Below, in pieces: positions 5,365 to 32,130 of a stretch of DNA of 64,000 nt. Positions within the stretch are counted from its first letter, which is position 1, and every line of letters begins with the position of its first letter. Position numbers and translations under genes: made by a program. The notes beneath the pieces were generated by a model. That model saw only the letters and a program-made list of their open reading frames with translations, was not told where the DNA came from and made no database searches. Location of the stretch: positions 3,024,265 through 3,088,264 of the forward strand of contig CM082597.2 in assembly GCA_040954595.2 (NCBI GenBank). The letters are read 5' to 3'. The DNA comes from Balanoglossus misakiensis. Taxonomy: Eukaryota; Animalia; Hemichordata.

Positions 5365-8300
5365 CTATTTATCACCCTTTGCTTGGGCGGCTGTCTTTTG
5401 AATGTCCACCGTTGCATACTCTGTTGCTTCGTCCTGCACTGGGGGTTTATTGGGCTGCGCGGCACTAGGTGTTCCAGCATGATCCAAATCAGCGTACACG
5501 AGACCCTCCACATTGTTATCTGTATTGTACTGATAGTGAACAAAGTTGAAAAAAAAACATGTTATTGATATCTCAGGAAACTCAAAATAACCAGTTGACC
5601 TTTTGAAATGGAAGTGTTGGTTATAGTCACACAAGGGTATTTAACTTGTGCACTCTGCCCTGATTTCAATCAAGGTGCCTCCAGTTAAACAGTTTTTGAG
5701 TAAACAACAAAATGGCTAACGGTACATGTGTTTTACAGGTCCTGGAGGTGGTTCTTTGAAGGAAGTTCAGTGTTTTAACCCGGAAATGCGATTATTTAGC
5801 ATGGGGAATTATGATAACTCTGATGTGCACAGTTTAGTTCCTGCTTGGATTGTCAGGAAAATTGAAACGTGCAATAATTCAAGACAGGTTCATAAATAAC
5901 TCACCATTCTTGGTGGTTCTTGTGGTGGCATTTCCTCATCTTTTTGATCTAATGGGAAATGATAAAAAGTCGAGAGAGAATATTACAACATAAACCAGTA
6001 ATCAATTTAGAGCCATTTCCTGAATAACAGCCATATATCTTAATTTTCTCATCGATATAAAGTGAAATTTTCAAGAAGTCATAGAGTCTTAAAATCAGCA
6101 ATGCGTACCAGTATCTGGTTTCTTCGAGATGCTATCCTTCTTATCCTGGTATAAATGAAATAAATGTCATTAGTAAGAATGTCTTGAGATCAAAATTCAG
6201 CGTGTTGAACACGAAATATGCTATGTGCTCAGGATAGTGAGAACCCACATTTGTTCTGTGTTGGGTTATTTTGGTTAATTTACTGCAGGCTATATGTGTA
6301 ATGTACCAATTAATGACATTAAATAGAGAGTCAAGCTCAGAATACTGAAATGGAAATGGTGCAAAATGTAAAAAACGGGAGAGAAAAAATTGTCCACTGT
6401 CACCTTTTTAATGGACTTCTTGGTGGGTTGTGAATATAGATTAGCAGGGTCATCAATATCGTCTACCTTTCCACCAGTGTTGGTTTTACCGAATGAAGAT
6501 ATAGGTTCCTCTGCCAAGGAAAAGAGAAGAATTCATCAGACATTAATGAGTTTGCGATGACTGATGCATCATTTATGACAATAGTACAGTTTCCATCTCT
6601 TTTGTGTTTACTGCTAGAGTAGACAACGTTCCAGAGTCACAACCCGAAAAAGAATTAAACTTTAAGTACCGGTGAACATATCAGATCCTCGCTTGTCCTC
6701 CATGCCATTAGCAGCCTCAGATCCCGTACCTACAGGGCTTGGTCGAATTCTTTCTGGATTGTCGTAATCATTGAATGCCTCTGGAGGTCTGTTATAGAAA
6801 ACACAAATGTGTTCATCAAACTCATAAAATCAGCTGCATACTTCTGCAACTTCTACAGAACTAAACAAATATGATCTATCTATCCGTCAATTCATCTATC
6901 GTCTGCCAAATATCCGTCAATGTATCTGGCCTCAACCCATCCACCCATCTGTCCCAATACCCACTCGTCCGAATCCATCTATCCATCCAACCACAAAACT
7001 GTATCTTCCCCTATTTCTGTCACTCTTGTTTATCTAGAATGTTATTGTACTTACGAATCATAATTTAATGCAGCCATCTCTGAAACAAAAGAGAATATAA
7101 TTAATGGTATCCGCATATGAACCATCTCTTTCAATGTAAACTTACTTCATGAATAACTTTAAATCCCACAATTGATTTGTAATATTATCCTTACCTGAAT
7201 CAACGTTTCGGTTATCAGTTGGCTTTTTCTGACGTTTAATCATGACAGCGAGCACTATTATGATGATAATAAGGAGAAGAATTCCACCAGAAATGCTGGC
7301 AATGAGGGGGACGGGTATTTGTGTATTTGGCTGTTTAGCTGAAAGTTGAAAGTAAATTATTCAGAAATAAATCATGCATGTCTGAAATGTATCCAGTGAA
7401 TGTTCACTTTGCCATCATTCAAAACGTTGCCCATGTCACATGAAAGTGTGCTTACATGTCATGTAATCTATACTTTGTTGCGTTCATATTTTTTTATATT
7501 GACACAGACCAGGCACACTGTAGGTGAATAGCCATGCATACACCATAAATATTTAGTCATAAACAAAATTATTATTACACATTGTTAGTACCTGTCAGAA
7601 TTGCAATAAAAGAATTTAGGTCTACGCATCTTACTTGGTTTTTCCTCAACAGTTAGCTGTATTTTATGAACATCTGAACCAACATAATTAGTGGCGGTGC
7701 ATGTGTACTCCCCTCCATCAACATCTGAGACACTCGCAATGCGCAAAATCTCGCCATCTCCTCTGTGTGTGCTGCCTTTCATCCAAGTGATGGTGGCCAA
7801 GGGATAAGCATCGACGTTGCATTGCAGGTTGACTGCCTCTCCAATGGTTGCTGTCACAGCATCAACTCCCTTGTTGGTTATACTTGGCGCGTCTAAAATG
7901 TAATGAGACATATGGCAGATCAATAATGTTGTCCAGTTATCAAATAAAATTACTAAGTCAGTCTCTATGGATATAGAGCACTTATTCAATAGACTATCCA
8001 CAATCTCGGCAAATTGTTGGGGGATTATGATCCATACACTAGCTTACTCTTGCTTGGTGGTCAGTGCCACAAAATTTACTTATCTACCAGTTAACGAATT
8101 GATTGATTGATTCGACCAACCTGTGGTCTGTATACACGGTCTCTACTGTAGATCTGTTGATAATGCTGTTAAGCTGTAAAGTACCAGAATTTATTATCAT
8201 AGTCATAAAAATGACTTGACGTTCTATAGGTATATTCTGCATACGTGATTTAGTTATAATTAGGGCCTACTCACAGTGAACAATGATCAATACTGATGAA

Positions 8301-11300
8301 CTTGTTCCATTGTCAAAACTGCCGTCAACAAATTCTGTGGTGGCCGCACAGTAGTAACTGCCATTACGCCATCGCTCAATAACCCTGAGGTCAAATGTGT
8401 GATTTGTGACCCCGTCCTCATTCACCATGGTGTCGACCTCGTTGGTTGTTTCATTAACATGATACAGTGTAATAGAGTGTGGATCCGGAATACCGTCAGT
8501 CACTGTACATGTTATCTTGGTTTGGTTGCCTTCTATGAGAACATCAGTTGGCCCAGTAACTTCAACATCTGCAATGTCTGGTAGGTGAGAAGTTCATAAA
8601 ATGAAAATTAATTCAAAATTGGAATCAATATACAGCACAAAACATATTCCAAAATATTTCATATTCATGAAATTAAAAAAGTGTTTGCACTCAAATAAAA
8701 TTAGAGTCTGACTTACATTCCACAATGATCTCAGTTGTATCAAATCCAATACCAACATCTCCATCATCGAATGCAGTTTCAGCTGAACAGTTATACACAC
8801 CAGCGTCCAGACGTTTGATCATTTCAATGGTGTGAACCAATTCTGATGTGATTATGTCACCATCCTTTGTCCATTCCTGTGTTGCCGGTGGATTAGAAGT
8901 AACTGTACATTGAAGAGTCACTTTGCCATTTTCTTTAATCCTGTTAGAAGTTGCGTTTACTACAATTTCAGGTCCAACTGTTAAAATGAGCGGAAGTTAT
9001 TACTAATTAGGTAAATTAAGCATTAACATTAAATAATGTAAACGACACATACTATATATTTTGCAAGGTTTATCAACTATCAATCAATACTTACATTGGA
9101 CATCGAGATAAGTTCTTTTATTTCCTGAGCCCTCTGTGCCATCATAATATGTGTTATTTCCAATACACACATAAAATCCAGTCATACTGCGAATGACGTC
9201 ATTCAAGATAAGTTTTGAACCAGACATTGTATCCCCTTGAGGTAGACGCCATGTGAATTCGACACTAGCCGGGTTCGCATCTAAGACGTTACATATAAGT
9301 GTGACATTCTCATACTCTCTAGAAACATACCCCATGGGCAATGCAAGTCTTGGTGGATCTACAAAAAAAGTTATACTTTAGTGTGATACATTTGTTAATT
9401 GACTTTTGTCATATTTTAAGTCCCTTTGAGTTTCAAAAGAGGATGTAAATTAATTCATGGAAGGTAACTACCACACAAAAATTCATATAAATGCACCTAT
9501 AATATAAAGAAAACTTACACTGTACATCAAGGTTAAACGCCTGTGTGTCGGTCATGGTAACATTGTTCCAAAATGTAGTCTTTGCTTCACAAGTATAGTC
9601 TCCACTTTGATGGCGCATGACATTTTCAAATCTCAGTATTTCACTATTGGAGACGGTGCCTGTTGTTGTCATCCACTGAACATGTGGTGCAGGATTGGAA
9701 CTGACGTTGCATAGTTTTTCAAATTCCCTGTCTTCAACTTCAAATATTGTCTGTTCAAAGTCTTCAATTTGCGGCGAATCTATGTTAAGAGAACTCATGA
9801 TTAGTCTTTAAGTTAAGCTCCAAATATAACCTAGACTGAATAACAATATATATAATCCCAGGAATGTTTGTTTTAAATGGCAGTTTTATAAATTGAATTA
9901 AGTGTTACTTACATTGAACGTCAACAAAAATCTCAGTACTTCCAGTGCCTTCCGATTCATCCCAGAATTCATTTGTTGCAATACATGTGTGCAAACCATG
10001 ATCATCCCTTGAAACCGTCGTTAGGTTCAACCATCTACTGTCATTACCAGAAGTGTCTTGCCAATAAATTGCAGTAACATCAGGATTGGCATCAATAACG
10101 CTACATTCTATATATATGCCATCACCAGTAATCACAGAACCACTGTTGCTAGCATCTCCATGAACTGTAGCTTGAAGGGAAGCGTTGTCTAATATAATGA
10201 GAACAAATAATCATAAATATGTAATCAATCAAAGAAGGTGTCACAATGTCTCAGTTATTGACAACGTCAATTTTTATATATATTCTCTTATAAATCTATA
10301 CTCACACTGTACGTCCAGTTCAATCATGTCACTTCCGTATCCTTGGTTTTTGTTGAAAAATGTATTATTGGCATGACACGTGTAAATTCCCCCGTCTGTT
10401 CTCTTCACATTGCTGAGGTGGAGCTGGGAAGTATTGTTAAGCCTGCTGTTGTCAGGGCCTGTCCATGAAACAACTGCTGGTGGGTTTGCATCTACTTCGC
10501 AGGATGCATTGTATTGTTTTCCGTCTATTACTTTCCCATTACTTTTGTCAGTTATAGTTGCAAATGGTCTGTCTGTTGAAAACATGATACATTTATACAA
10601 TATTTATAGCATGATTAATGCTTAGTAGCCAACTTTGTTTTAGTAGCTGTGAAATAGTCTACCTTGCATGAATAAAGTAATGTTGATCTCAGACGTAACA
10701 AACAGCGTCATGAATGTAAGTGAAAATGAATAGTGAGTATTTCACAACTGAGAATAAATGGTTTCTAGCTTGCTCTGATAGTTTATCATAACAGTAACAG
10801 TTGCCATATTAATCACACTGCGGAATTGACAGTAATGATAAATTTGTAAATGAATTATACTTGAACTTACAATGCACACTCAGTTCTACGGATGCAGTAC
10901 CATTCCCCTTCGTACCATCATAAAAAGCATTCTGAGCGACACATTTATACGTCCCGTTATCTTCCCTGGTGGCATTTTCCAGTATGAGCGTCAGGTTCTC
11001 ATAAATGTCACCATTGGGTAATAGCCAATACCAATTATCAATTTTATCCGGGTTTCCCATCTCCTGAATTTCACACTCAGCAAAGTAGTTATCACCTTCT
11101 ACAACCACATTGTCTGTTGTCTTGGTAACATTCACGATCGGCGGAACTAAAACGACAAAATGCACAGTGTGTGTTATATCAAAGTACGCTTATGAGATTA
11201 ATACACTGAATAAATATTTACAAATCTCAGGACACCTATAGTTTGAAATGAATTTTGAATCAGCTGCCCAAGCATCAAAGAATGTCAAGATACTGAAACC

Positions 11301-13174
11301 CGTTCACGCGAAATTTTCTTTTGAACCCAAGGAAGTTATGAAACTCTGTAGGGATTTACATTGACAGAATACTGCAGAAGAGAGCTCCTACAGTTGAAAT
11401 ACCAGTACTATATCTGAAATGTTATCTCAGGCTAATAAAGCATCCTCAATATTGGCAACATTGACTTGTGTACCTTAATTTGTATATACAATAATGAAAA
11501 TTAACACTTGATGTTATAGTTGGAAAATTGTGTGTTCCTAAATTAGGATTCTGCATGTTGAATTATAGAAATAAAACCAAGATATTTTAACAACTGGTTG
11601 CTGAAAATGAATCATATAATAGAGATGTCCCTTACACTCTACGTTCATTGTGATACTCTCACACATTAAGTTGCTTTCGCTTGCCAGGGGTAGCGTGATG
11701 TAATCAATTCCACAATATAGAGTGGCTCCATTTTCCTCTCTGGTAAATGATCTTGAAAATATGTGTTCTTGTGATGCATTTCTAGACTCTTCTTGACCAT
11801 TCACAATCCACACTGTTTCACCTGGTGGTACTCCATTTTCACTGCTGCAATTGAATATTGTTTCCTGTCCTTGTATTGTTGTTTGTCCCGGATAAACTTG
11901 ACATGTTGGACCCGATTCTGCAGTGAAATAAAACACATACATTACTTGAGTCATGACCTGTCTGACACTTTTTTCTACATGTGAACATTCATCATTTGTC
12001 TTGTTCAACTACTTTCACCGTGATAGGTATGTGCACTGCTACCTGCCAATGTCGAAATAAACACGCAAGAAATTTTGGCAGTGTCTAATTATCCCTAGCT
12101 GATAGTATTGGCTAAAATAAAGCTGGCATGGACTTAAAAGCAAGTGGAAAATTTGCAAGTTGCTGCTGATAGTTGACCCACATGTAAGACGCTATCTTTG
12201 TGATTCAGGCTTCTAGATGTAAAAGCATTGTACAATTGTTGCAATATTCCCTGTGACCTCATTGAAATATGCACTGCTTTATATGTTTGCATATTCAAAG
12301 TGGAATACTATTCATTTTTAATTCAAAACTATGCTACTGAATAGATATGGACAGATCAAATACATTAAAACAGTGGCTGTTTCAAAATAGACAGATCTTA
12401 CCTATAACATACAAGGTGATGCGTTTAGATACTGAATTATCATATGCTTTGCACTCGTGGTCCCTTTGAAATTCCGTTGTAACATTTTCTATATACAGAT
12501 GATAGTAATATTCATTTCCCATGGAACCTATCTTCACGGCATAATCATGATTGGCGATAGTACTACCAAGTGATATCTGCGCAGGCGTGTCTGCTGTATA
12601 CCTATACCAAGATAATAGCTTGCCTCCACGTTCGACAACACTGCAGTTTATTTGCGTTGTTGTATTGATAATGGCCAAGGTTGGTATTGGTTCTTCTTTG
12701 AATTCAATTGTCCGACCTGTAAATAAAACAGTATCTAACGTCCATCTGCTATTATATTTATCTCATGTAATTATTTTGGCTTACGCCTGGCAGTATATTT
12801 GCATAGGCGAGATAGTAAGCTTACTTAATGTTAGTTTTTTCTAGAAATGCTCTTGTAAGTAAATTTAACACTCGAGCTAGAGTCATGAAACTGAAAAATA
12901 AAAGAAATACAACATAATTTTTTTATGGTACTTTGTGCTCTTGATAAACCAGCAATATCAGAAAAAATATATTTGATACACCAATCACAACAGCCATTCT
13001 TAAAATATCGATTGCACAGACAGGAAGGTAGACAGACCAGTGTGACATGTTTTGCGCAGGGCTAAACCGATCACATTGTCTAAAGTAGATGCACTTACAT
13101 GTCCCCACAAGAACTGCAACGATCAGAATAAAATCGATGAATTTAACCTTGTTCTCTGCGATGAAGATCCCCAT
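5365..13174 (-). CDS. Receptor A: type I membrane protein, 10 Ig domains (nephrin/Kirrel/CD22-like), cytoplasmic ITIM+ITSM; about 1139 aa, 18 exons
   Basis: GT-AG exons with consistent phases: 13174-13099 (signal MGIFIAENKVKFIDFILIVAVLVGT). Ig1-10: 12716-12402, 11917-11636, 11146-10871, 10572-10306, 10188-9913, 9779-9519, 9358-9095, 8977-8717, 8577-8275, 7892-7635 (all phase 1-1, C...W...C pattern). TM 7338-7195 (LIASISGGILLLIIIIIVLAVMIKRQKK). Tail: 7079-7055, 6788-6730 (alternative donor 6670), 6510-6404, 6145-6109, 5948-5905, 5529-5365 (GLVYADLD...ATEYATVD, stop TAG). Confidence 0.9.
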
Positions 13175-16100
13175 GATGATTCAAATCCTACCCACGGGTA
13201 GAATTATCGGAACACAATTTGAGCACACAGCTTACCCACCACATTGCTTACAGCAATGGCGCAAATAGCATTTGCAAACTAGGTTCACTGCACAGTAGTA
13301 CCATCCACGAAATTCAGCTTTAACACTATCTCCAGAGGGCGTTGTACATTTTCCTCTGACATGAGTTGAAATGTATACGAGGACAAGCGGGATTAATGAC
13401 CAACTGGCGTATGATACTTCAAAATGAATGCCATTATTACAAGCATTCTATGACACTTTCAATATTTATGACATTTCAGAACATCACAGGGAAATGAATA
13501 TCAGAAGACGGACATATATGGACGAATTTAAGGCAAACGTGTTTATAAGCTGTACCTGTTTTGTAACAGTATGTGCCTTTCTTGCAGGAAAATGTGAGTT
13601 TTACACTTTACAAAATGTTGAGTTTACCAGCCTAATTTTGATTGCATAATAGCAACGAAAATTATGGTCACTTAACTGGATTTCTGCCATATTACCTATG
13701 TTTGGAAATGCTACATGTATAATACAAATGCGACATAGACATACAAGTCAGCCAATGTAAATTCAAATGTGTATGAATTCTAGGGCGTCTTTGCTCAAAT
13801 GTTTTCCTAGAAAGAACTTTCTTGATAGAAATATAGATATGGTTGCGATGTGGTGTCTTGTACATGTTAGACCTTGGTTTTACATGCAGGTTATTCAATT
13901 GAATTCAAAGAAGAACCAATACCAACCTTGGCCATTATCAATACAACAACGCAAATAAACTGCAGTGTTGTCGAACGTGGAGGCAAACCATTAACTTGGT
14001 ATTGGCATACTGCAGACAAGTCTACGCAGATATCTCTTGATAGTACTCTCGCTGATGATGATTATGCCATGAAGATAGGTTCCATGGGAAATGAATATTA
14101 TTATCATCTGTATATAGAAAACGTTACAACGAAATTTCAAAGAGACCACGAGTGCAGAGCATTTGATGGATCGATATCTAAATGCATCACCTTGTATGTT
14201 ATAGGTAAGATCGGGATGTTTAATGTATTTGATCTGTCCATGAATCTATTCAGTGAATTATATAATAGTTTTGAATTAAAAATGAATGTTGCATCGATTT
14301 GAATATGGCAATATATTAAAATTCTGCATATTTAAATGAGATTGATATTTACCAGAGGGAATATCACAACAAATGTACAATGCATATAAATCTAGAAGTC
14401 TACCGGCAATAATAGTGTCTTACAGATGGGTAAAAATATCAGAAGCAACAGGCACAGTTTCCACTTGCTTTTCAGTGCATGCCAGCTTTACTTTCACCAT
14501 AACTATCAACTATGAATGGGTATACACTGTCCAAATCTTTTGCGTTTTTACCTTGAATGCTGGCAGATAGCAGTGTCCCTAGCACCAGAATGAAAGTAGA
14601 TGGCCAATGAATATGAATGCAAGCATGTAGAAAAAATGGGTCAAAATATGATACAGCAATTGTACAAATGTGTGTGTGTGGATATCTTTCGCATTACAGG
14701 TAATATATCATTAAATAGGATCATGGCTCAAGTAATGTTTGTGTTATTTCACTTTATCCACAGAGTCTGGTCCAACTTGTCAGGTTTATCCAGGACAAAC
14801 AACAATACAAGGACAGGAAACAATATTCAATTGCAGCAGTGAAAATGGAGTACCACCAGGTGAAACAGTGTGGATTGTGAATGGTCAAGAAGAGTCTAGA
14901 AATGCATCACAAGAACACATATTTTCAAGATCATTTACCAGAGAGGAAAATGGAGCCACTCTATATTGTGGTATTGAATACATCACGCTACCCCCGGCAA
15001 GCGAAAGCAACTTAATGTGTGAGAGTATCACAATGAATGTACAATGTAAGGGAAAACTCTATCATATGATTCATATTCAGCCACCAAATGTTGTAAACAC
15101 ACACACACAATCTTAATTTATGAACACATCATTTTTACAACTAACAACGAGAACTCTAATTCTCAAGAACTCATGCTCAAGCTATTTCAGATGTTTTGAC
15201 AGCAACACGCTTTGGGGCTAATTATTCTTTCATCTTCAAATCTATATAGACGATGCGACACTCGCAACTGAAGTTCATGGATATGCTAGCGACAATGGTT
15301 CTGTAATTAATGGCGATGACATATATCTGAAATGTAGTGTTATTGATGCCAATCCCACTGTCACTGGAATATACTGGCAAGACAATCCTGGCGTATACAG
15401 TAGATGGTTGAACCTAACAGCAGTTTCAAGGGATGATCATGGTTTGCACAAGTGCATTGCAACAAATGAATTTTGGGATCAATCGGTAGGCACTGGAAGT
15501 ACTGAGATTTTTGTTGACGTTCAATGTAAGTAACACTTAATTAAATTTATAAAACTGCCATTTAAAACAAACATTCCTGGGATTATATATATTGTTATTC
15601 AGTCTAGGTTATATTTGGAGCTTAACTTAAGGACTAATCACATGAGTTTTTTTAATAACATAGATTCACCGCAAATTGAAGACTTTGAACAGACAATATT
15701 TGAAGTTGAAGACAGGGAATTTGAAAAACTATGCAACGTCAGTTCCAATCCTCCACCACATGTTCAGTGGATGACAACAACAGGCACTGTCTCCAATAGT
15801 GAAATACTGAGATTTGAAAATATCATGCGCGATCAAAGTGGAGACTATACTTGTGAAGCAAAAACTACATTTTGGAACAATGTTACCGTGACCGACACAC
15901 AGACGTTTAACCTTGATGTACAGTGTAAGTTTATTTTCAATTATAATGAAGTGGCATTTATATTAATTTACATGGTGTAGTAATCGTCAGTAAATTAATT
16001 CACAGTCTCTTTTAAAACTCAAAGGGATTTGAAATACCTGTATAACGAAAGTAAATTAACAAATGTCTCACACTGAAGTATATCTTTTTTTCTTAGATCC

Positions 16101-17178
16101 ACCAAGACTTGGATTGCCCATGGGGTATGTTTCTAGAGAGTATGAGAATGTCACACTTATATGTAACGTCTTAGATGCGAACCCGGCTAGTGTCGAATTC
16201 ACATGGCTTCTACCTCAAGGGGATAAAATGTCTGGTTCAAAACTTATCCTGAATGACGTCATTCGCAGTATGACTGGATTATATGTGTGTATTGGAAATA
16301 ACACATATTATGATGGCACAGAGGGCTCAGGAACTAAAACAACTTATCTTGATGTCCAATGTAAGTATTGATTGATTGTTGATAAACCTTACAAAATATA
16401 TAGTATGTGTCGTTTACATTATTTAACGTTAATGCTTAATTTACCTTATTAGTAATAAGTTCCGTTCATTTTAACAGTTGGACCTGAAATTGTAGTAGAC
16501 GCAACTTCTAACAGGATTAAAGAAAATGGCAAAGTGACTCTTCAATGTACAGTTACTTCTAATCCACCGGCAACACACGAATGGACAAAGGATGGTGACG
16601 TAATCACATCAGAATTGATTCACACCATTGACATGATCAAACGTCAGGATGCTGGTGTGTATAAATGTTCAGCTGAAACTGCATTCGATGATGGAGATGT
16701 TGATATTGGATTTGATACAACTGAGGTCATTGTGGAATGTAAGTCAGACTCTAATTTTATTTGAGTGCAAACACTTTTTTAATTTCATGAATATGAAATA
16801 TTTTGGAAAAGCATGTGCTGTATATTGATTCCAATTTTGAATTAATTTTCATTTTATGAACTTCTCACCTACAAGACATTGCAAATGTTGAAGTTACTGG
16901 GCCAACCGATGTTCTCATAGAAGGCAACCAAACCAAGATAACATGTACAGTGACTGACGGTATCCCAGATCCACACTCTATTACACTCTACCATGTTAAT
17001 GAAACAACCAATGAGGTCGACACCATGGTAAATGAGGACGGAGTCATAAACCACATTTTTGAGTTCAGGGTGATTGAACGATGGCGTCATGGCAGTTACT
17101 ACTGTGCAGCCACCACAGAATTTGTTGACGGCAGCGTTGAGAGTGGAAAGAGTGCAGAAATACCAGTATTTGTTCACT
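8275..17178. repeat. Large imperfect inverted repeat: arm 8275-12716 versus arm 13890-17178
   Basis: Ig exons of A and B have identical lengths (315, 282, 276, 261, 264, 261, 303 nt) and largely identical sequence. Several introns are near-identical too (9780-9912 vs 15526-15663; 8978-9094 vs 16361-16477; 8578-8716 vs 16739-16875). Confidence 0.92.
13175..13517. promoter_or_regulatory. Putative shared bidirectional promoter/5'UTRs of receptors A and B
   Basis: Only 343 bp separate the divergent start codons (13174 minus; 13518 plus, with an alternative in-frame ATG at 13494). Confidence 0.55.
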
Positions 17179-20100
17179 GTGAGTATTTTTTGTAAAAATT
17201 GGATTGTCTGCTGAATCATCATGTTTACATGAAGGCAGTCATTCATTTACCAATGACTCGTCATTGTATCACATAATTGCAGATCAACCTACAATACTCA
17301 ACAAGACAGGTGATGTAATTGATGCAGCTATTGGGGATACAATCACTTTTGCCTGTACTGTGGATGCCTACCCAGACGCTACCATCACATGGACTAAAAA
17401 CGGCAGTGTGCTGCAGGAAGGATCTACCAATACTTTTACAGTTAGTGATGCTGTGGTAGAAGATGAAGGAATGTATAAGTGTACTGCACATAATTATCTT
17501 GGCTATGATGAATATACTATTCAACTCAAAGTAAACATGGCAAATGGTAAGCACCATTTATTCCTAACCATTACATTTTTCGATTCTGATGATAATGATG
17601 ATTGTGATGATCAGTCAAAAGAATATGAAACTAACAACAGTATAAAATGTCAATGTCCATTTTCAGTTTCATCCACGTCACCACCACTTGTGACAATTAT
17701 ATCATCAGTGGTCTGTGTAGTGGTCGTGGTTGCAGTGACAACCATTATTGTGTTTAAAAGGTGCAGAAACACGAAGCATCCACGACAGGTAAAACAGGTA
17801 AATCGTATTTTAAACATAAATGTGTTTTATTTCATATTTATTGACCCCATAGAGATGAATAGAATTGGTTAGGTAGGACACAGGTGACTACAGAAATTAG
17901 ACCATTCTTTCATGCAAATGCATGATCAGAATTTTAAGAACATCATGCAGTGTATATGTAGAGTCAACTAAGTATACCAAGCTGGTCCTTCATTGTTGAA
18001 TTACGTAGTTGGGAGTATGTAGAAATGGGGCCTTAACGCCTGATAGAAGATATATCTAAAGACAGGGGTCGAGAAAGACAATCCAGAGTTAACACAAGGA
18101 ATGTGGCCAGTAGTTATAACTCTTGATCAGTTTTATATCACCGTTATTTGTGTTCTTCAATCCAGAGAGAAGAAAGTGAACCCTACGAAGACTTGCAGAG
18201 CGGATACCAGGTATGATACATGCTTGGGTTTTAGATTCCATCCTGAATTGACCACATCTCTATTTTCTGCAAAGAATAATTAACTATGGCCCAATTGTTT
18301 ACTTAATTACTAAAAAAATAGATTTCCCATTGTGAAAGGGCCAATTTTCAATCCCTGATGCTCGCATTAGTTGTTGACAATATGTGATGGATTGACTTGA
18401 TAAGATTTTGAACAAGGCTTTCCACCACATTCACCTCCATCTACGATTTCTTATTTATAGCCTGCAGAGTATACATCTCTTGAATTACCGGTATACACTA
18501 ATCCGATACCTGACAATGAACCTGTCTACACAAAAGTTGGAGACGTGGTGCTGGAATTTCCCCGAGAACTCGTTCGGAAGGGAGATTTCATCGGAGAAGG
18601 CACCTTTGGCAAAGTCTTCAAAGCTAAGGCACGTGACTTTGCTGGTAAAGATGGAGTGACGGTGTTGGCACTGAAGATGTTGAAAGGTAAATGTGTTTAT
18701 ATCACTGCAAACACCTGTGAATTTTAATTTAAAATCATTTACTAATTTGTTCATTGAGGATGAAGATTATAACCCTTACAAGGAACACAAACCATTTATC
18801 AGTCTGTCCAGGTAATATTTCCATACATGCATGTATTTATTGTCAATTGCTTTCTTCAGATAATGCCTCAGATGAGGATAGAATAAAATTCACTTCTGAA
18901 TTGGATTTGCTGAAACGTGTTGGTCAACATGAACATATCGTATGCATTAGAGGATGCTGTATTGACAAAGGTATGGTGTATTATATTCTGTCATTGACTC
19001 TTGTATGTATGTATGTATGTATGTATGTATGTATGTATGTATGTATGTATGTATGTATGGTATGAATAAAAATTTATGTGATGATAAAGATAACATTTGT
19101 CGCATACTACAACCACAGAACCCCGCTATATTTTGATGGAATTCATGTCAATCGGTAACCTGAAGAAATATTTAAGAGACTGTCATAAAGCAAACACGGA
19201 TAGTTATGCCAACGCCAGAGTCAAGTTATTCGACTTGAAAAATGAGGATCTCATCACATTTGCGCGGCAAGTTGCTAGTGGAATGGAATATCTGGCATCG
19301 AAAGAGGTAGGGGGACAATAGTTATGTATAGATACATGAGCTACTAGCTTACACCAATGACAGTGCGTAAATTTGCATTCTGTACCTTTGAGCAGATATG
19401 CCACAAATAGTGGTAAACACCTGAAGCATATACTTGCTAGCATATGTACCTTAGAAACTGCTCTGGCAACAGATGGTATAAAGCTGAAACAACTAACAAC
19501 CACTGGTGATTGAATGGAGAATACGAACAGTGATTTGAAGGGGCTCTATACAAACAACCACAAGGGAATCATAGTATATTAATCTGATTAATCTGATTTT
19601 ATCTTGATTGCCTAGTGTGTGCATGGTGATCTTGCTGCTAGGAACATCTTAATGAATGCCAACAGGGTTTGTAAAGTGACGAACTTTGGTCGTATTGAGG
19701 ACACAAAGATGGGTGAAGATGCGGACAGTAAACAGGTACTGAAAACACATGCGTGAAGTATAATGATGCAGACAGTAAATAGGTTCTGAACCACAACTAA
19801 CACATATATTATAAATATGCCGATTAATATATATACTGACAATAATCACAATTTATGTTTGTTCCAAAGAAACGCCTGCCAATTCGTTGGATGGCTCCTG
19901 AAGTCTTGTTTTCATCCGAGTATTCCACCCAGGGTGACGTTTGGTCATTTGGAGTGGTTGTTTGGGAGATCATCACGTTGGGTAATGAACAGTAAAATAA
20001 ATAAGTAAATAAATAAATAAAGGTAGTATGCAAGAAATGAAAGAAAGAATGAATGGATTTAATTAATTAATTATTTACCCAAGATGGGTAATGACGAAAG

Positions 20101-20830
20101 TTCATCTTTCATATCAATGGATACAATTCTTCCAGGTAACACACCATATCCGGGAATGTCATCCCAAGACGTTATCCAATTCCTTCAAGAAGAAGGTCGA
20201 ATGAGTAAACCGAAGTATTGCAACAGCGATCTGTAAGTACGGAACAAAGAGATTGTAGAGAGGAGAGACACAATGGGGAGGATGGGTGCTGAATAAGTCA
20301 AAACTAATTGGCAGACTAAACTGGACCATATAAACACGACATGGATTATATTGAGGTGTTTCTCTAAACAACTGCAATGTAAGACTGAATTGGTATCTGA
20401 AGGAAGAACAATAAGTTATGTTTTTTCATCAATAGGTACGTGTTAATGATGAACTGCTGGTCTCAGAAAGCAAGCAGACGACCATCATTCACTCAACTAG
20501 TTCGGGAACTGAAGGAATTTGAGAAAGAGAAAGAGGTATGTACCGGTATGCATAATTCAAGACTATCCGAAATTCAGTTTTCAACATTCTGCATTCGTGA
20601 TCTCTGCCATATTTGTTAGTGTTTATCGTCAAGTAACATCAGGGAAGTTCAGTGAAATGCTGGAGTCAATCTAAACTGAAAATTATCGACTTGAAGAATA
20701 AGCTTCCCAAGCATGTTTTTCCAAAACGCCTACTCATAAATTTGACAACACCTTTATTTTCTCTGTACAGCCCTATGTCGATATACACGGTGCGTATGAA
20801 GATGTGCAAGGACTGGAAATGAAAGACTGA
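13518..20830 (+). CDS. Receptor B: 8-Ig receptor tyrosine kinase-like protein (FGFR/RET-type kinase domain, probable pseudokinase) with juxtamembrane ITAM; about 1160 aa, 19 exons
   Basis: Exons: 13518-13593 (signal [25 protein letters not shown]). Ig: 13890-14204, 14764-15045, 15250-15525, 15664-15924, 16097-16360, 16478-16738, 16876-17178, 17283-17546. TM 17667-17788 (or 17797). Then 18166-18210 ([15 protein letters not shown]), 18461-18686 (PAEYTSL...LEFPRE...IGEGTFGKV...LALKMLK), 18860-18970, 19119-19306, 19616-19735 (VHGDLAARN...VTNFG), 19870-19981 (LPIRWMAPE...[12 protein letters not shown]), 20136-20232 (GNTPYPG), 20436-20535 ([12 protein letters not shown]), 20771-20830 (stop TGA). 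The frame stays open throughout. Confidence 0.9.
19003..19039. repeat. (TATG)n microsatellite in an intron of B
   Basis: gtatgtatgtatg... about 9 units. Confidence 0.9.
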
Positions 20831-22280: not shown

Positions 22281-22786
22281 TCAGCGATAGTTGTAGTTCT
22301 GCCACGCGCGTGAAACGAACACCTGGTTTCCCTGTACGGTGACGGGTACTTGTATCTGCGTTGTGACTTGTTGGTGCTGCTGCTGTTGTTGTTGGGCCTG
22401 CTGTTGTTGGGCCTGCTGCTGCTGTTGGGTTTGTTGTTGCTGCTGCTGCTGTTGCTGGGGCTGTTGCTGCGTCTGGATGGGACTCATGGGCTGCGGCGCG
22501 TTCTGCAGGTGAGTGAGCTGCGGCTGCTGGAAGTGGGTGGGCGACTGCCGCAGGTGGCTGACGTCCACGGTGGAGTGGGACACCGGGATGGCCTGCTGCA
22601 CCAGGTGCGTCTGCACAGTCTGCTGCGCGATCCGCTGCGTGATCTGCTGGTACTCGGCTGGCTGCGGGCGGTACTCGCTCAGCGTCTGCGACAGCTCGCT
22701 CATGGCCTGTGTCAGCAGGTCTGCTGCTTGGACGGCCTCTTGCTGGGATGTTACGACGGCCTGTTCGATGAATCTCACTTGCGTTG

Positions 22787-22818
<32 letters not shown>

Positions 22819-25800
22819 ACCACTTGGGAGATCACTCTCTGCACTGCTGGGTCGGTGGTGATGGTCGTTTCGGTGACTGGCTGCGGCGTTCCCGTGGGCG
22901 TCGGTTGCTGCAGTTGCAGCTGCGGTTGGAGAGAACCAGCAGCTGAGGCAGCCACAACAGCCGCTGGACCCGACACTGCAATCTGTGCCGGTATCTGGGC
23001 TTGCACTGTAATGGGAGCAGTCAAGGCATGCTGTGTGGCTAGCGTAGCCACTTGTATTGGAGTGGGCTGCGCCACAACTGCGACGACCGTGGGTGTGTGC
23101 GTCTGCTGACCAGCCATGTGCACTGATGTAGCCTGGGCCGCGGCTGCTGCTTGGGCGGCTGCTGCAGCAGCCTGCATTGGCTCCATGTGCTTCTTGCGAA
23201 CGTGGTCCATCATCTTGGCTTTGGAGCTGTACTGGCGAGGACAGTGAGCGCACGCGAAGTAGTGCGTTGTCGTCGTCCCTGCAGGCGCCGTATGGGTGTC
23301 GATGTAACCACCGTCCTCCGAGCTCTTGCTTTTGCGAATGCTCGGTGGCAGCTCGGCGCCCGGGTGGTTCTTGATGATATGTATCTTGCGCTTGCTGCTG
23401 CTCTTGTACACCTTGTCGCAGTAGTTGCAGAAGTAGTTGCGGTTGGGCTTGACGATGGGCAGGCTCAGCTCCGGCACGGTCTCCGGGCGGATCTCCGGAT
23501 GCCGCTTGGCCAGGTGGTTCACCAGCATTCCGCGGCGACGGAAGCCGATCAGACAGATGCGGCATTTGAAGGTGAACTGGTCGAGGTCTGTGGGTGGAAC
23601 CTTGGGCTTGAATGGCGGTTTCTTCGGGCGGTTGGCTTTCATGGCCTGCTTGGCTTCCCTCTCCGGGTTGTGCATCCGGAGCATGTGCTCCTTGAGTTTG
23701 TCTTTCCGCTTGAACTGTTTGCCGCAGTTGGCGCACAGGAAGTCTTTGCGGTCGGAGTGCCTCAGCATGTGGAGCTTCAGCTTGTCGGGTCTGGGGAATA
23801 TCTTCTCGCACTCCGGGCAGGGATACTCCTTGCTGGAATGGAACCCGCGGATGTGCTTCCTCACTTGCGGATACTCCGTGAAAGTCTTGCTACAGTGGGG
23901 ACAGTGGAATATCCCGTTCACGCTGTGGACCACCACGTGTTCTTTCAGCGAGTCGGTGCGGTCGAACCCCTCGTCGCAAAACGGGCACCTGTAGTACTTC
24001 TGGCCACTGTGTGTCTTCATGTGGCAGGCTATGGCGGAGTTATTCAGGAAACGCTTGCAGCAGATCTCGCACTGGATTGGTTTCTCGGACTCGCGGGAAT
24101 GCAGCTCCATGTGGCGGTCGAACTTGATTCTCTCGCGGAAGGGCTTGTTGCAGGTATCGCAGCGGTAAGCAACTCTCGCCAGAGAACGCCTCACCATGGT
24201 GGATTTCATCTTGGGTTTCCCATGCGCGGTAGCATGAATCGCCAGCAACTTCTGATCGTTGAACAGTTCATCACAGTCAGGACATCTCAAGTCGACTTTG
24301 TCTAGTTCATTCTCAGCTAGCTGCGGCACCGCTGATAGGCTACCAGGAACGTTTGCGTCGGTGGAACTTCCTGCTACTTGTTCGACCTGGAGAACGGCGG
24401 CCCGTTCCACATCGGCCATGATGTTTGTGCCTGCCTCCATGACGTCGTTTACATTGCCAGTGGAAACGGTCACCTGGCCATCGGCGTCAACCAGGGTTTG
24501 TACGGCCACAGGTACTATATCCTCGGGGAGGACAGCAGTCCCGTTCTGTACAGCCACAGCCGCAGATCCGTTCTGCGCTGCCGCAGTCGCCTCTTCCAGA
24601 CTATCGTTTTCATCTTGCGTGTGAGTCAACATGTGTAACGTCAGCAATCTAGCGCTTTCAAACTCCAGATCGCACTGGGAGCACGTCAAGTCACTCTCGC
24701 TTTCCCCGCTCTCTCCCCCGTCGCCGACTTTATCTTTGTACACCACGTTGCCGTCCTCATCCACGCTCTCCCCTCGCTCTTCGTGCCGACGCATGTGTCG
24801 CGTGCGGTTGTAGACGTGCGAGAACTTCTTCGCGCAGATCGGACAGGTGAAGTTTTTCTCTCCGGAATGCATCACTAGGTGGCGCTGTAGACTGTACGAT
24901 CTCGGGAATGTCTTGGCACAGATATTACACGAGAACGGTTCCTTCTTGCGGGCTCTTGCCCTCTGCACTTTGGCCAAAGCAACCTTCTTCTGAGTAAGAG
25001 TGCCATAGCGCCGTCGTCTTCCCCTTTTGCCCTTTGGTTTTGGTCTTGTGTGCAGAGCATCATGAGTGGCTAGATGTTTCTGTAGGAGTTCGGACGATCG
25101 GAATCGCTTTGGACATTCAAAACAGGGCCATGTATTCTCCTTGTCTTGCATTTCTGAAAAAATACAACAGTTTGAATTAATAATCTTTTTAAGAGTGTGT
25201 TCAGGTAAATTTGTTTCAAAGCCGAGCTTACAACAGCTTATAAGTGAGAACCACTGCAATGTCGCACAAACACGTAAATTAACTGTATGTACCTTGTAAT
25301 TCCTCAGCAGTGATTTCAAAGACATCGGCACCGACATACTCAGCATAGGACGCTGCGTACCAGACTCTCATTTCTTGCTTGGGGTCAATATTGCGGATAG
25401 TAGCAAAGAAGATGTGCCCGTTGTTCTGATAGGCTATCAGATTCTGCTCGCTGTGACAGGTTGCTGGACGCACAAACATCATCCAGTTGCTTTCGTTCTC
25501 ATCACCGGCGTCTAAATACACAGTGCCTCCATCATTACTCTGGAGCTGTAGAGAAAATCAACAACCAAGTCTTGTATTGTGAATTCGAATATGGTGTTCT
25601 ATGGTACAATAAAGATCTATATATACATGAAAGCTATGCTCGAACAGTAACATTTATTTTCTCAGTAAAATCGTACAAGATGCTCACATAACACGAACCC
25701 ATACTAGAAAATTCACTTCTATATTTGTATACCTTTGGGCTAAATTATTGAGTGTGAGTCAAGAGTGACCAAGGCCAGCTTTGGTCTGTACACAGAATTT

Positions 25801-28176
25801 TTTTAAACTGCTTTATTATATCACTACTCACCTTCCATGTCATTCCATCAATCGGAGCTATTGCTACCAGTTTTCCCTCCAGTGGGCCAAACTGTGTTTT
25901 CTTTGGAATGGCTCGCTTGGCAAACACACCTGTAAGTAGGGAATGTGTAAGAGTGTGTATATCAGTTCTATTGTTGATGTTTGTTTGTTTGTTTGTTTTT
26001 GGGGGGGGCTGGTTAAGTGACAATTTGGTTTGATTTTTCACTTTCCAAATTCCCTTCATACACGTAGATCTGGAAAATTTTCTGTGTATTTAGAAAATGT
26101 ATTGCGATCAAAAGTTGAAATGTACTTACCAACTTTGTCATCATCAACCTTGAATATCTGCAGCAGGTTAGGGAGGCTGGCTCTAGCTCTTGTCAATACC
26201 GGTTTGTCTGATATCGTCTGAAGAGCCCCATCTTCTCCAACTGTTGAAAAAAACACGAGAATTGTTACATCTTACATGTGATTCAACTGCTTAGCATTCT
26301 CAGTGTAATCAAAAGTAATTGAATGGTTAAAGCTGATGTATTTCCCTGTGATCGGGCTATGGTAAGTGAACTGAGATCAAAAACTTCCCAAGCATTATCA
26401 CAGGCGTTTAATTTCTGCCCATGAAATATCAACTCCTTGACTCAATGGGAATAAGCCAAGCAGAAACCACTGGGCATTTATACAACTATCTGATATTAAG
26501 ATTTTGCTCAAGGACACAACATCGCGGCCATGAAGTAACCAGCCTCAGATAGAAAATCCACAGCCATGTCCGTGTCTGGGAATTGAACCCACAACCCTAT
26601 GGCTGTAAGTCTGCTACCCTGACCACTGACGATATCTCCTGGAAAGCCAATACAAATGTACATTGTGTAAACAGACCACTGGATACACAGATGCTATACA
26701 CAATACTTACACAGCTCCTTTGTATCGAATGCCACTTTGACTTGCGCTTTCATATCACCTGATAGAACATCATCATCATCCTCGTCATCTTCATCCTCGT
26801 CGTCTTCATCCTCATCCTCCTCTTCTTCTTCATCAGTCTCCATGGCGATGTCTCTGCCAACATCTATGAGGTTGAGAAATACACATTAGCACTTCAATCA
26901 CTTTGAACTTGTGCTATACACGAATAAAGAAACGTTTCGAATTTTAGGACCATACTCACTCTGGGAACTGGTTCCTGGGACAGGCATGTTGCCATCGACC
27001 GCCATTTCAATGTCCGTTCTATGGAATGTCACAGGTGTCATCATTTCTACGTCGGTCGTGGTGGACGGTCCCACTGTTGGATCGCTGGGTTCGTCATGGA
27101 TGTGTGTTATGAGCGTGACACTGCTACCACTCACTGTTGATAAAATGCAGAAGAGGGAAATCAATACAGTATGTTGATTAATAAACAAATTTCCTATTAA
27201 ATGAATCAGCTGTATTACCTCAGCCTAGGTAAGTCCAATTTAGCACCCCACTGTTGAAAACCATTGCCATATACATAATAAATAAAAATCTACCTTTATT
27301 TTATCCAATAGTACAGTCTACATGTATCTATTACATTGGCACAAGTTACACAAGCAAAATTAGTTATTGTTGCTATGGTAATGACAATCCACACAAACAA
27401 ACGATTTTCACTAATAAACACTGAGGGCGCCATATCATGTAGATCCAGCGTCCACCTTTTACAGTGAGAATACCCACCGGGCTCTTGACCAGTTGCTTCG
27501 TTGTCATCGCTGGGTCCGATGCCGACACCCTCGGCTTCAGCAGACATTGTGGTCTCGTACTCCGTGACCGTGGATTCTGGCAAGCCACTTCCCGATGGTG
27601 CCGTGTCGTCCACCACTGCCATGGTCTCCGAGTGGTCGTACGCCTGTCCGCTGGGTTCAGGACCACTGCCATCATGGACTATGCCAGGACTGTAGCCAGT
27701 TGCCTGTGAATTCAACATACAAGCTTGTTAATACAGTACACACCAAGAATTAATCTCCTAATTTTGGGCTAACATTAAAGGTATACAGTCACCTCCAATT
27801 TACATACACCCATATATACATGTATGGCTGAAATGGCGCATTTGAGCATTCTAAAGAACATTTTTTCGCGTGTGCCACCCACTGAAAATCTGTGATTGGC
27901 TAGATCTCAATTTGCCATGGTAACTATAGCTAATTTTTCATAGGTGACCGTATACCTTTAACAATGCATTGAAATACTCAATGATCTCAGAAATGATCTC
28001 CCCATCAAGGACAGATATATACACAATGAAATGAAACTTACATGTACCTGCATTGCGGCCCCAGAGCTCGACACTGGCTCCATGTTCGCAGCGTCACCAC
28101 CGCCATGATGCACCGTGACTATACTGGCATGGGGCGGCCACACAGGTTGATTGTTGTCGCTGCTGCCTGGTTCCAT
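22281..28176 (-). CDS. PRDM10: PR/SET domain zinc finger protein 10; about 1338 aa, 8 coding exons
   Basis: Exons 28176-28048, 27703-27478, 27133-26960, 26863-26711 (acidic D/E run), 26240-26130 ([12 protein letters not shown]), 25929-25832 ([16 protein letters not shown]), 25545-25293 (NWMMFVRPA...EQNLIAYQ...[10 protein letters not shown]), 25153-22281. The last exon holds the C2H2 array with PRDM10-typical [30 protein letters not shown] and [17 protein letters not shown], a Q-rich tail and [14 protein letters not shown]. Confidence 0.93.
22376..22450 (-). repeat. Coding CAG/CAA polyglutamine tract in the PRDM10 C-terminus (second tract 22786-22817)
   Basis: Translates as [34 protein letters not shown]. 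Confidence 0.9.
26340..26630 (-). mobile_element. tRNA-derived SINE in a PRDM10 intron
   Basis: Minus strand reads agtggtcagggtagcagact (A-box-like)...gggttcaattccc (B box, 26578-26590), followed by gttgtgtccttgagcaaaa, a central motif typical of SINE conserved domains. The 3' boundary is approximate. Confidence 0.65.
27775..27961. mobile_element. Complete 187-bp MITE with TTAA ends (Kolobok/T2-like)
   Basis: Terminal inverted repeats ttaaaggtatacagtcacct ... aggtgaccgtatacctttaa (one mismatch), TTAA at both ends, and a second copy at 1-239. Confidence 0.85.
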
Positions 28177-29889
28177 TTAGACAGCAGATCAATTTTCCAT
28201 TTACCAACAACTGTGAAAATGACACAATAACAAAATACAGTTTAGGATAACCAGTATATGGAAAGACAAGGTACATGTATAGTGGCCTTCTTAGCCCATA
28301 TGATGCACTACTGACTCAAAAAACTCACTGGTGACTCAAGCAAATTATCCACACGACATGTAAAAGTATGGGGCCGAATAAGAGAATCTTATAAAAATCC
28401 TCAAATTGACTCAAGGCTTTCAAAATATTATGAAGTTGTTGGTAAATATTGAGGGGTCAGGTACATGTAGGCATATTCCTTTGTCTTTCATTTCACAAAA
28501 TATCATATCCAATTTAATCAAGGGTTTCAGAGAAGTAGTATTTTTATTTTTGTTCTGTAAAAGTTTTTTCTTGAATCAGAATGTGGCTAAAATATTAATT
28601 CTCTTTATTTTTTGTTTTATTTGTTAAGGGAAAACCAATATCTTTCAATACCTTCACATGCTTTGTTGATTCATTTTCACCCATGGCATAGCTATGGCAG
28701 TGTATGAAAAACCACACTTGATCTATTCACGTGTTTGTTTGGTTTTTATTTAAGTTTTAGAAAATACATGAATCAATCAAAAAGGCCTGCTTTAGCTCAT
28801 GGGTCTTCATACATGTACATTTCTATCATAACAAATACATTGTAACGCTGGTGTAATAGTTTTATTTCTTTGAAACGCATGTCAATCAATGTTGTGTAGA
28901 GCCCAGTTAGTCATTCTGGGAGTTGACCGGGAATGACACGCCTTCGAAATTCCCTAAACAGTGGACATACCACTGCACGTATCTACGAAAGGGACATAGC
29001 ATCAGCGACGCGGAGCAAGACGCACTGTGATCCGTTTCATTGAAATCGACAAACAAAATGGCGTCCAATCGCTTCGCGTCGATTACAAATGCCTGACCGG
29101 GTCATCATGACGTACGGGTCTTTCGACACCTTGTTTCGGAGGTGTCCGATTTTAAATCGGGCACGGAAATATCGACTTGTCAAGATAGACTGGTCGGTGG
29201 GAGTTCCGACTTGTCGTTGTGTCCCCTGTAGCCAAAGTGGTGTGAACTGCACATCATCAAAAGACAGCAGGACTGTTCCATCTTGAAAAACAACCTCAAC
29301 ATGGCCTCCGTTTTGACCAGCGTCTGCAGGGACGTACTCAAAGCCGAAAACGACAGAGAAAACTCACCAGAATCTCACTTTGTGAGCTAAAAACAATATG
29401 AACCACAAGAGGAGAGGGTTTTCACAGCAGATCGTCTCAAAATTAAGGAAATACAGCCCAACTTCGAACGACAACCGACTACGTGATTAGTTTATGCAAA
29501 TATGCCCAGCTCCCCCTTGTGTACAATGGTGGTCAAATAGTTTTAATAAAATTTTCGACTCCCAAACGGGCAAATCTAGTACAATTAGCCTTTTTCACAT
29601 TGTCCCATGTCGCTAAAATATTGTGAAAATTTTCAGAGCGCATCAATTCGCGCAGACACCAGATTTCCCCAAAATTGTGGAACCGTTCAGAACAAAGCAT
29701 AAATTTTCGGGTGGGTCCCACCCCCGGCGAGTGTGGGACAAGTTTTCACGCTGTCTACTCGGTATCTTGCATACAACGTCATTTTAAACGTATGGGTACA
29801 TAGCAATGGTTGTGACAGGGGGTGAAATTCAGCTGAAAGGTGTTAAACGTGTCAGAATTTTGAGAAAAATGGTAGGGGAAAAACTGGGA

Positions 29890-30991: not shown

Positions 30992-32130
30992 CTAGAATGC
31001 CAGAGAACCAGTTAACAGCGCTAACCTGCCAGCTATGACGTCAGCACTGAGCGGAATCATAAACTGTTGGGGAAACCTCTGTCGGTGGGCGCTAAAACTC
31101 CGGATGACATTATCAGTTGCCATGACACCACTCTTCCCCACGATGAGGTCGAACAACGGCAGCCAGAGAACGTCACTAGAGTCTAGTTTCTCGGCCAGTG
31201 CCACTATTTTACCGCCACCCATTTCCGAGAAACGGTACTTCTTCAAGTCCGCGGACGTCATTTGAGAAATTGTGACCTTTGACGGGTGGTCACTTGTACT
31301 CTCCAGACCGCATTTAAACGTCAAGTCGGCTTCTTCCAGAGAACAACTTCCCCCGTTCCAGTTTTCTGTCGTACCGACCACGGCACAGTTGACAAGATTT
31401 TCAGTACTAACCGGCATATTCTCTGGCAAAATATTATGCAGTTCCGCTGAAATTTTATAAGTTCTGCTGGAAAACTGGTCGAGATGCACTGCCATTCCCG
31501 TCTTGATGTTTTCTTTTGTAAGAATGACATCGTTTAGAATTTTTGCAGGGGATTTGATTCCTGATCTGAAATGGGAAAAATTTCTTGGTTTAGTTACAAT
31601 CAGAAGCACGCTTTAACTTATCACCAGATTTTACAGGGTTTTCGGAAACAACGATACCATCTCCAGATCATGGCAGTACCCATTTGTGTATTTCTTCGTA
31701 AGAAAGTGACACTTTACCAAGTTGAAATGCCATACAAACCCGTTTTTGCGGCTGTCGTCAAATTGCCAATGGCCATCGTAACACACAGCCGTTCCTTCGC
31801 TGAATTGAAAATTGTCTATGTCTTCATGAACCACGCTAACTTTACTCCTTGTAGGAAAGAAGCAAAACGTGATAAGCAGTCGCGAAATTCATCAGTTTGA
31901 AATACGTTCATCCTATAAATATGCACCAAATTGATGGATGTACGGACGGACGGACGGACGGACATTCAGACAAAAAAATGAGTCTTACATCATACACATA
32001 ACAGTGCAACAACTATCGCTTACCCGAAATTATATGACGTCGTCAGTACATGGTTTATGGGCTCACAGAAGTATACGACCAAACACAGCGTTGCAACTAC
32101 GATTATGAACATAATCGACCCAATTTTCAT
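30992..32130 (-). CDS. Uncharacterised protein with N-terminal signal peptide/anchor, about 280-300 aa, 3 coding exons
   Basis: Exon 32130-32024 (MKIGSIMFIIVVATLCLVVYFCEPINHVLTTSYNF, donor GG|gtaagc). Exon from 31847 (SKVSVVHEDIDNFQFSEGTAVCYDGHWQFDD...; donor uncertain, about 31680 or 31635). Last exon 31565-30992 (about 190 codons, GC-richer than flanks, stop TAG). No family recognised. Confidence 0.6.

Follow-up and report, generated by a model that had tools for sequence, protein, structure and literature searches.

We analysed a stretch of 64,000 nucleotides from the acorn worm Balanoglossus misakiensis (contig CM082597.2, positions 3,024,265 to 3,088,264; hereafter the window), in which two divergently oriented genes, A and B, encode immunoglobulin (Ig) receptors with different cytoplasmic parts (Table 1). 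Gene B was modelled manually, with splice signals and homology as guides. Pfam gave an Ig match in all three of the Ig exons of B that were scanned and a PK_Tyr_Ser-Thr match in all four of the kinase exons scanned. With its ectodomain, one transmembrane (TM) segment and a tyrosine-kinase-type domain with an AAR catalytic loop, B belongs to the receptor tyrosine kinase (RTK) superfamily. Papers are cited below by PMC number and from excerpts of their text.

Table 1. Features of genes A and B, in window coordinates.
Feature	Position	Strand	Basis or remark
Gene A (1161 aa in 18 exons): 10 Ig-like exons, TM, tail bearing an ITIM and an ITSM, kinase absent	5365..13174	-	all AG/GT, no internal stop
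ITSM of A (TEYATV)	5407..5424	-	sequence
ITIM of A (LVYADL)	5485..5502	-	counterpart motif in P0123, P0128, P0130
Stretch of ~320 bp separating the start codons of A and B, which diverge; candidate shared promoter	13175..13493	.	layout
Gene B (1171 aa in 19 exons): N-terminus resembling a signal peptide, 8 Ig-like exons, TM, ITAM-like motif, domain with tyrosine-kinase fold, tail with Tyr	13494..20830	+	all AG/GT, no internal stop
Block of B matching A 10166-8268	15272..17185	+	alignment; 91.7% identity, introns included
TM exon of B	17667..17797	+	hydropathy maximum at aa 786
ITAM-like motif, first half YEDL (Y826), in exon 18166-18210	18184..18195	+	sequence
ITAM-like motif, second half YTSL (Y838), in exon 18461-18686	18470..18481	+	sequence
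Gly-rich loop GEGTFG	18593..18610	+	sequence
beta3 lysine (LALK)	18674..18676	+	sequence and alignment
alphaC glutamate	18898..18900	+	sequence and alignment
Exon 15 of B: catalytic loop, Mg-binding motif, activation segment	19616..19735	+	AG/GT flanks, phase 0-0, 40 codons
HGD replacing HRD, catalytic Asp retained	19622..19630	+	CAT GGT GAT
NFG replacing DFG, Mg-binding Asp gone	19682..19690	+	AAC TTT GGT
Final exon of B, with YVDI and YEDV as tyrosine motifs of the tail	20771..20830	+	stop codon also present in second haplotype

The first-pass annotation had described the kinase domain of B as impaired in catalysis yet intact, with HGD for HRD, NFG for DFG and an activation segment devoid of Tyr. 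All of these were read in the open frame, and there is no Tyr from NFG to the APE motif. The Gly loop, the beta3 Lys, the alphaC Glu and the catalytic Asp, which were said to be retained, were each located in the sequence; the AAR Arg and the catalytic-loop Asn are kept as well. Neither stops nor frameshifts interrupt the domain, as the 19 exons join at AG/GT into a single frame. HGD alone is no proof of a disabled kinase, because decapod PVRs contain HGDLA (PMC11024359), and to this extent the annotation's point on HGD is supported. Its other point, that loss of the DFG Asp is a kinase-dead change, agrees with the requirement of this residue for efficient catalysis (PMC4718504), although ATP binding does not strictly require it (PMC4718504, PMC13519141). 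A protein that has lost at least one of the beta3 Lys, the HRD Asp and the DFG Asp is a pseudokinase by the sequence definition (PMC4718504, PMC13519141), and in B the DFG Asp is an Asn. The kinase domain of B is probably inactive as a catalyst, and some residual activity is possible, since it has lost neither the Gly loop nor the Lys, the Glu and the Asp and Asn of the catalytic loop. The annotation had also invoked the enrichment of non-RD kinases among innate-immune receptor kinases. That argument concerns kinases of the Pelle/IRAK type, which are active Ser/Thr kinases without the HRD Arg. It carries little weight for B, which is of tyrosine-kinase lineage and has lost the DFG Asp too.

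The AAC codon of NFG was followed beyond the assembly in Logan contigs from three DNA runs, all made from a single sample that may be the source of the window itself. Among the contigs of run X1 over exon 15, one was identical to the window (depth 34.6), whereas a second one (depth 36.1) differed from it by 14 substitutions and 2 gaps. All 14 substitutions are known; none falls within 19622-30 or 19682-90, and AAC is kept. The second form was found in run X2 as well; run X3 gave no matching contig. The depth of about 35 for each contig, and of about 70 where they are shared, suggests that the two are haplotypes, though the second could be a very close paralog. As AAC is carried by both and Asn occurs also in relatives from Ptychodera flava, an assembly error is largely ruled out as the origin of HGD/NFG in B. 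Five of the 40 residues of exon 15 are changed in the second haplotype (pN 0.068, pS 0.185), so that constraint on this exon is loose within the sample: it is polymorphic, yet both HGD and NFG are kept. Between 19080 and 20900, the 12 indels listed among the 19 that separate the contigs from the window are all non-coding, though 37% of this stretch is coding. Over 19609-19785 the haplotype contigs are about 8% apart, which is high for alleles and may reflect balancing selection or a close paralog. A third, paralogous contig spans 19613-19692 with 12 differences in 80 bases and a different intron and loop. This contig shows that the sample contains one or more additional members of the family.

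Among 121 homologous proteins compared, HRD/DFG was found in 110, and 6 gave no motif match. HGD/NFG occurred in P0001, P0004, P0005 and P0007 and HRD/NVG in P0006, all from P. flava, the species of the closest named relatives, and another of its proteins, P0122, likewise has HGD/NFG. Asn therefore occupies the DFG position in all six P. flava models that include exon 15 (P0001, P0122, P0004-P0007). The names "FGFR-like" and "Cad96Ca-like" borne by the P. flava relatives at NCBI are automatic labels. A HMMER search with P0001 added the Ig receptors P0171 and P0177, in which the catalytic Asp is replaced by Glu, the catalytic-loop Asn is lost and DFG reads NIG; they keep 61 of 71 positions that are invariant in 60 control kinases. 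A search with exon 15 alone yielded 1 protein among 4 candidates. After removal of the catalytic-loop and activation-segment columns, B grouped with the P. flava proteins and P0171/P0177 in a clade with support of 100/99, separate from FGFR, Cad96Ca and coral RTKs (100/100). An activation-loop Tyr was present in none of the eight clade members with this segment, versus 111 of 121 control kinases. The kinase of B falls outside the FGFR clade and has neither HRD/DFG nor activation-loop tyrosines; it also falls outside Cad96Ca, in a tree without vertebrate RET, and its ectodomain is of the Ig and not of the cadherin type. The B family is not alone in the D-to-N change, since P0242, outside the clade, has HRD/NFG. 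No NFG-type kinase from Saccoglossus or Glandiceps was recognised by name among the 10 of 150 representatives looked up, which is weak evidence of absence. Other degenerate relatives were P0173 (HRN/DFG), P0191 (HRD/GFG), P0212 (HRQ/GFG), P0216 (HSE/RIG) and P0167 (HSD/DFG). The motif survey suggests that catalysis was lost repeatedly within the receptor-kinase expansion around B. A lineage-specific expansion of tyrosine kinases has reportedly been studied in amphioxus. Lineage-specific expansions of this kind are on record (PMC8662651).

These data bear on the possibility that B is an atypical active kinase, in which HGD and the Tyr-free loop would make activity independent of phosphorylation and the Asn would hold a single Mg, giving low or constitutive activity. 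The Gly loop, Lys, Glu, catalytic Asp, Arg and Asn are indeed kept in B, P0004 and P0005, HGD is known in PVRs (PMC11024359), and low activity is on record for HER3, JAK2 JH2 and KSR2 (PMC13519141). However, HER3, JAK2 JH2 and KSR2 retain the Asp of the DFG motif, efficient catalysis needs this residue (PMC4718504), and the P0171/P0177 branch has lost the Asp as well as the Asn of the catalytic loop, which one would expect of a lineage that no longer needed catalysis. We regard an active B kinase as distinctly unlikely.

B retains 64 of the 71 positions invariant in the control kinases; among those lost are the DFG Asp, the HRD Arg and, as this alignment has it, the Arg after DFG. Between B and P0004, kinase identity is 89% at the invariant sites and 49% elsewhere, and overall identity is higher for the kinase (59%) than for the Ig block (50%). 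Identity of the B kinase to FGFR, RET and Cad96Ca amounts to 40-42%. As a stand-in for B, an AF2 model of its relative P0005 was used (pLDDT 82.5, pTM 0.78), whose best Foldseek matches were FGFR kinases (target TM about 0.9), with FGFR1-4 as the best PDB matches; the alignment behind this model consists mostly of canonical kinases, so that the model supports the plausibility of the fold and says nothing on inactivity. A kinase fold is thus indicated by the 64 sites in B itself together with the model of P0005. The neutral decay that the first-pass annotation had named as the outcome contrary to its reading does not agree with a domain that is conserved across the clade, keeps its invariant sites and shows the listed indels only outside coding sequence. 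By this comparison the remainder of the B kinase domain is under purifying selection, and B can be classed by sequence as a receptor pseudokinase of FGFR/RET-like descent, conserved and probably inactive.

A decaying pseudogene or an assembly error would be suggested by the state of the P. flava gene models, since the kinase domain is complete in only 2 of the 10 kinase-bearing models and incomplete in the other 8 (P0160 and P0303 are without exon 15), and by the five amino-acid changes in exon 15 of the second haplotype. The incomplete models may reflect faulty annotation or else pseudogenes of the sort that birth-and-death families produce. For B itself, this explanation is already largely refuted and highly improbable: AAC stands in two haplotypes, the frame of 19 exons is open, the same substitution runs through a deep clade, and selection is seen at the invariant sites and against coding indels.

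The juxtamembrane segment of B contains the motif YEDL-x8-YTSL, that is, YxxL-x8-YxxL, which satisfies the strict ITAM consensus Yxx[I/L]x(6-9)Yxx[L/I] (PMC9546547). This strict pattern arose in 0.6% of 20000 shuffles of the segment. Among the 10 clade members, the strict form (spacer 6-9) was found in B only and a relaxed form (spacer 6-12) in 7, with P0004, P0007 and P0177 missing even the latter. Among 131 control representatives the counts were 3 strict and 9 relaxed. Several matches within the clade are near-duplicate paralogs, and Fisher tests that pool these with the wider clade described below overstate the significance. Five of six other relatives outside the clade fitted the strict ITAM, including P0165 from Glandiceps, which has HRD/DFG and a loop Tyr. 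The Glandiceps protein P0167 (HSD/DFG) also has a strict ITAM-like motif. The first-pass annotation had proposed that the kinase became a scaffold and that signalling moved to the ITAM. B does have an ITAM-like motif, but the idea of a move fares less well, since such a motif is present in P0165 beside an intact HRD/DFG: because this kinase-intact protein has the strict motif, the ITAM is probably not a replacement born at kinase death. The motif comparison suggests that an ITAM-like motif was probably once present beside an active kinase and persisted through the loss of catalysis. A wider clade of B, P0165, P0167 and the other ITAM kinases obtained an SH-aLRT of only 82 in a quick tree and was unresolved without the motif columns. 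As the sister position of P0165/P0167 is not firm, we claim no order of events between ITAM and kinase loss.

The ITAM pattern also bears on whether B signals at all. As a passive decoy, B would share the ligand of A, and its cytoplasmic part would be a remnant that serves folding or trafficking without ITAM signalling. Such a role would agree with the variation of the ITAM pattern across the family and with the frequency of juxtamembrane Tyr motifs in RTKs (the relaxed pattern in 9 of the 131 controls). It is very unlikely, given that B fits the strict consensus, a rare outcome of shuffling, and that selection is strong across a domain of 280 residues.

Genes A and B share more than their orientation. 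Besides the block in Table 1, two further blocks are alike at 92% and 79% identity, again introns included, and the Ig blocks of A and B are 90% identical. The membrane-proximal Ig exon, in contrast, is only 54% alike and the tails are unrelated. P. flava has both types of receptor, P0123 with ITIM and ITSM and P0004 with the NFG kinase, whose ectodomains are 76% identical; their linkage is putative and rests on equal-sized contigs. The tail of A is 39% identical to that of P0123. A tree of the ectodomains (13 rows) grouped A with B and P0123 with P0004, both at 100/100. Since ectodomains sort by species and tails by type, these results indicate concerted evolution of paired receptors, although recent independent exon shuffling in each lineage may also account for the likeness of the A and B ectodomains. 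Two features of paired receptors are therefore present: the genes are linked and their highly similar ectodomains have been homogenised within the species, and the motifs are opposed, ITIM and ITSM in A and a strict-consensus ITAM in B. On these grounds A and B are likely to be a pair. Two Ig exons of A (11146-10871 and 10572-10306) are absent in B and match the P. flava kinase receptor P0007, so that exon content has been shuffled between receptor types. P0129, P0158 and P0159 of P. flava have a short tail with a single YENH, so that this ectodomain family comes with a third type of tail.

The reading that we prefer, to which we give a probability of roughly 0.6, is that B is an intact Ig receptor with a likely dead kinase as scaffold, and the activating member of a predicted ITAM/ITIM pair with A. 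All signalling steps set out here for A and B are inferred from knowledge of the motifs. The two genes would be co-expressed through the candidate shared promoter, and their products would bind the same ligand, either microbial or a self/allotype one. Clustering of B by the ligand would allow a kinase acting in trans, most likely of the Src family, to phosphorylate Y826/Y838 and the tail tyrosines, and a tandem-SH2 kinase of the Syk/Shark type could then dock on phosphorylated B. The folded pseudokinase may act as a docking or dimerising platform, perhaps still binding ATP. A would recruit an SHP-type phosphatase through its ITIM and ITSM and so counteract B.

B could instead be a co-receptor in the manner of HER3, with a role in growth or adhesion and not in immune signalling by way of Src and Syk, which would heterodimerise with an active RTK of the cluster and either be phosphorylated by this partner or activate it allosterically. 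In Glandiceps talaboti the kinase-intact P0165 (XP_077985343, HRD/DFG) may lie near the ITIM+ITSM relatives P0128 and P0130, judging by accessions and equal-sized contigs; the C-lobe is intact and the tail tyrosines are kept in B, and HER3 itself is a precedent (PMC13519141). However, no active sister kinase was seen in the 64-kb window, and a partner with ITIM/ITSM and a converted ectodomain suits paired receptors better. A HER3-like role for B is unlikely.

B resembles FGFR, RET and Cad96Ca RTKs in the fold and sequence of its kinase, its Ig ectodomain and its AAR catalytic loop, and differs from them in HGD, NFG, the missing loop Tyr, the 8 Ig exons, the ITAM-like motif and the partner gene with an ITIM. 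Its lineage differs from that of the receptor pseudokinases HER3, PTK7, ROR, RYK, EphA10 and EphB6; RYK, too, is a receptor tyrosine pseudokinase. We know of no receptor tyrosine pseudokinase that carries an ITAM or is gene-converted with an ITIM partner. Like B, HER3, PTK7/CCK4, ROR1/2, EphA10 and EphB6 are single-pass proteins with a folded kinase domain that lacks a canonical catalytic residue (PMC4718504, PMC13519141). NFG did not occur in either of the two reviews searched for it (one of them PMC13519141, with 0 matches).

In vertebrates, the paired receptors Siglec-11/16, CEACAM1/3 and the Xenopus ceacams resemble A and B in combining opposed tails with near-identical ectodomains. SIGLEC11 and SIGLEC16 lie head-to-head, about 9 kb apart, and their products are kept alike by gene conversion (PMC5701461), and similar behaviour is described for Xenopus ceacams with ITIM/ITSM versus ITAM-like tails (PMC5112662). 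Unlike B, the activating members of vertebrate pairs have no kinase-fold domain and rely on an adaptor or on a short tail with an ITAM; the candidate activating member here is derived from an RTK, and the pair is found in a non-vertebrate deuterostome. As ectodomain similarity to CEACAM/CD22 is only 22-28%, the likeness is one of analogy and not of orthology. Hydractinia Alr, which is clustered, and oyster CgIgIT2 are likewise Ig receptors of invertebrates whose tails carry an ITAM or an ITIM (PMC9546547, PMC11999971); the excerpts describe no kinase domain in them, and they are compared by description, homology to A/B not being implied. Receptor pseudokinases and ITAM/ITIM pairs are each well known, and we found no report of one protein as both. 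The full-text literature searched, mostly outside subscription papers and supplements, where hemichordate genome papers may list these genes, contained no account of the B family, nor of any receptor pseudokinase that bears an ITAM and has an ITIM receptor as its partner.

More tentatively, and in our judgement with a little less than an even chance, acorn worms may have made paired immune receptors from an RTK by keeping the ITAM, turning the kinase into a scaffold and matching an ITIM/ITSM partner through gene conversion. Paired receptors of the vertebrate style would then have been invented independently, and the family would provide a living intermediate between an RTK and a kinase-less ITAM immunoreceptor, with graded loss from intact through NFG to HGE/NIG. 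Such a natural series of kinase degeneration lets one ask why a dead RTK domain is kept. Should the pair function as predicted, paired-receptor immunity would reach the hemichordates, a deuterostome outgroup to chordates and, to our knowledge, a phylum with little described immunology. A and B would then form a polymorphic candidate locus for recognition of pathogens or of self.

Elsewhere in the window, a C2H2 zinc-finger gene with a PR/SET domain, a Gln-rich tail and a GC-rich long exon, which looks PRDM10-like, occupies 22281-26271 (-); it is convergent with B and ends about 1.5 kb from it. Two open reading frames, at 29044-29286 (+, 80 aa), with a Cys-rich stretch at its end, and at 30992-31612 (-, 206 aa), gave no Pfam match. 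At 55261-62526 (+) lies an adhesion GPCR with an Ig domain, a GPS motif and a secretin-family 7TM region.
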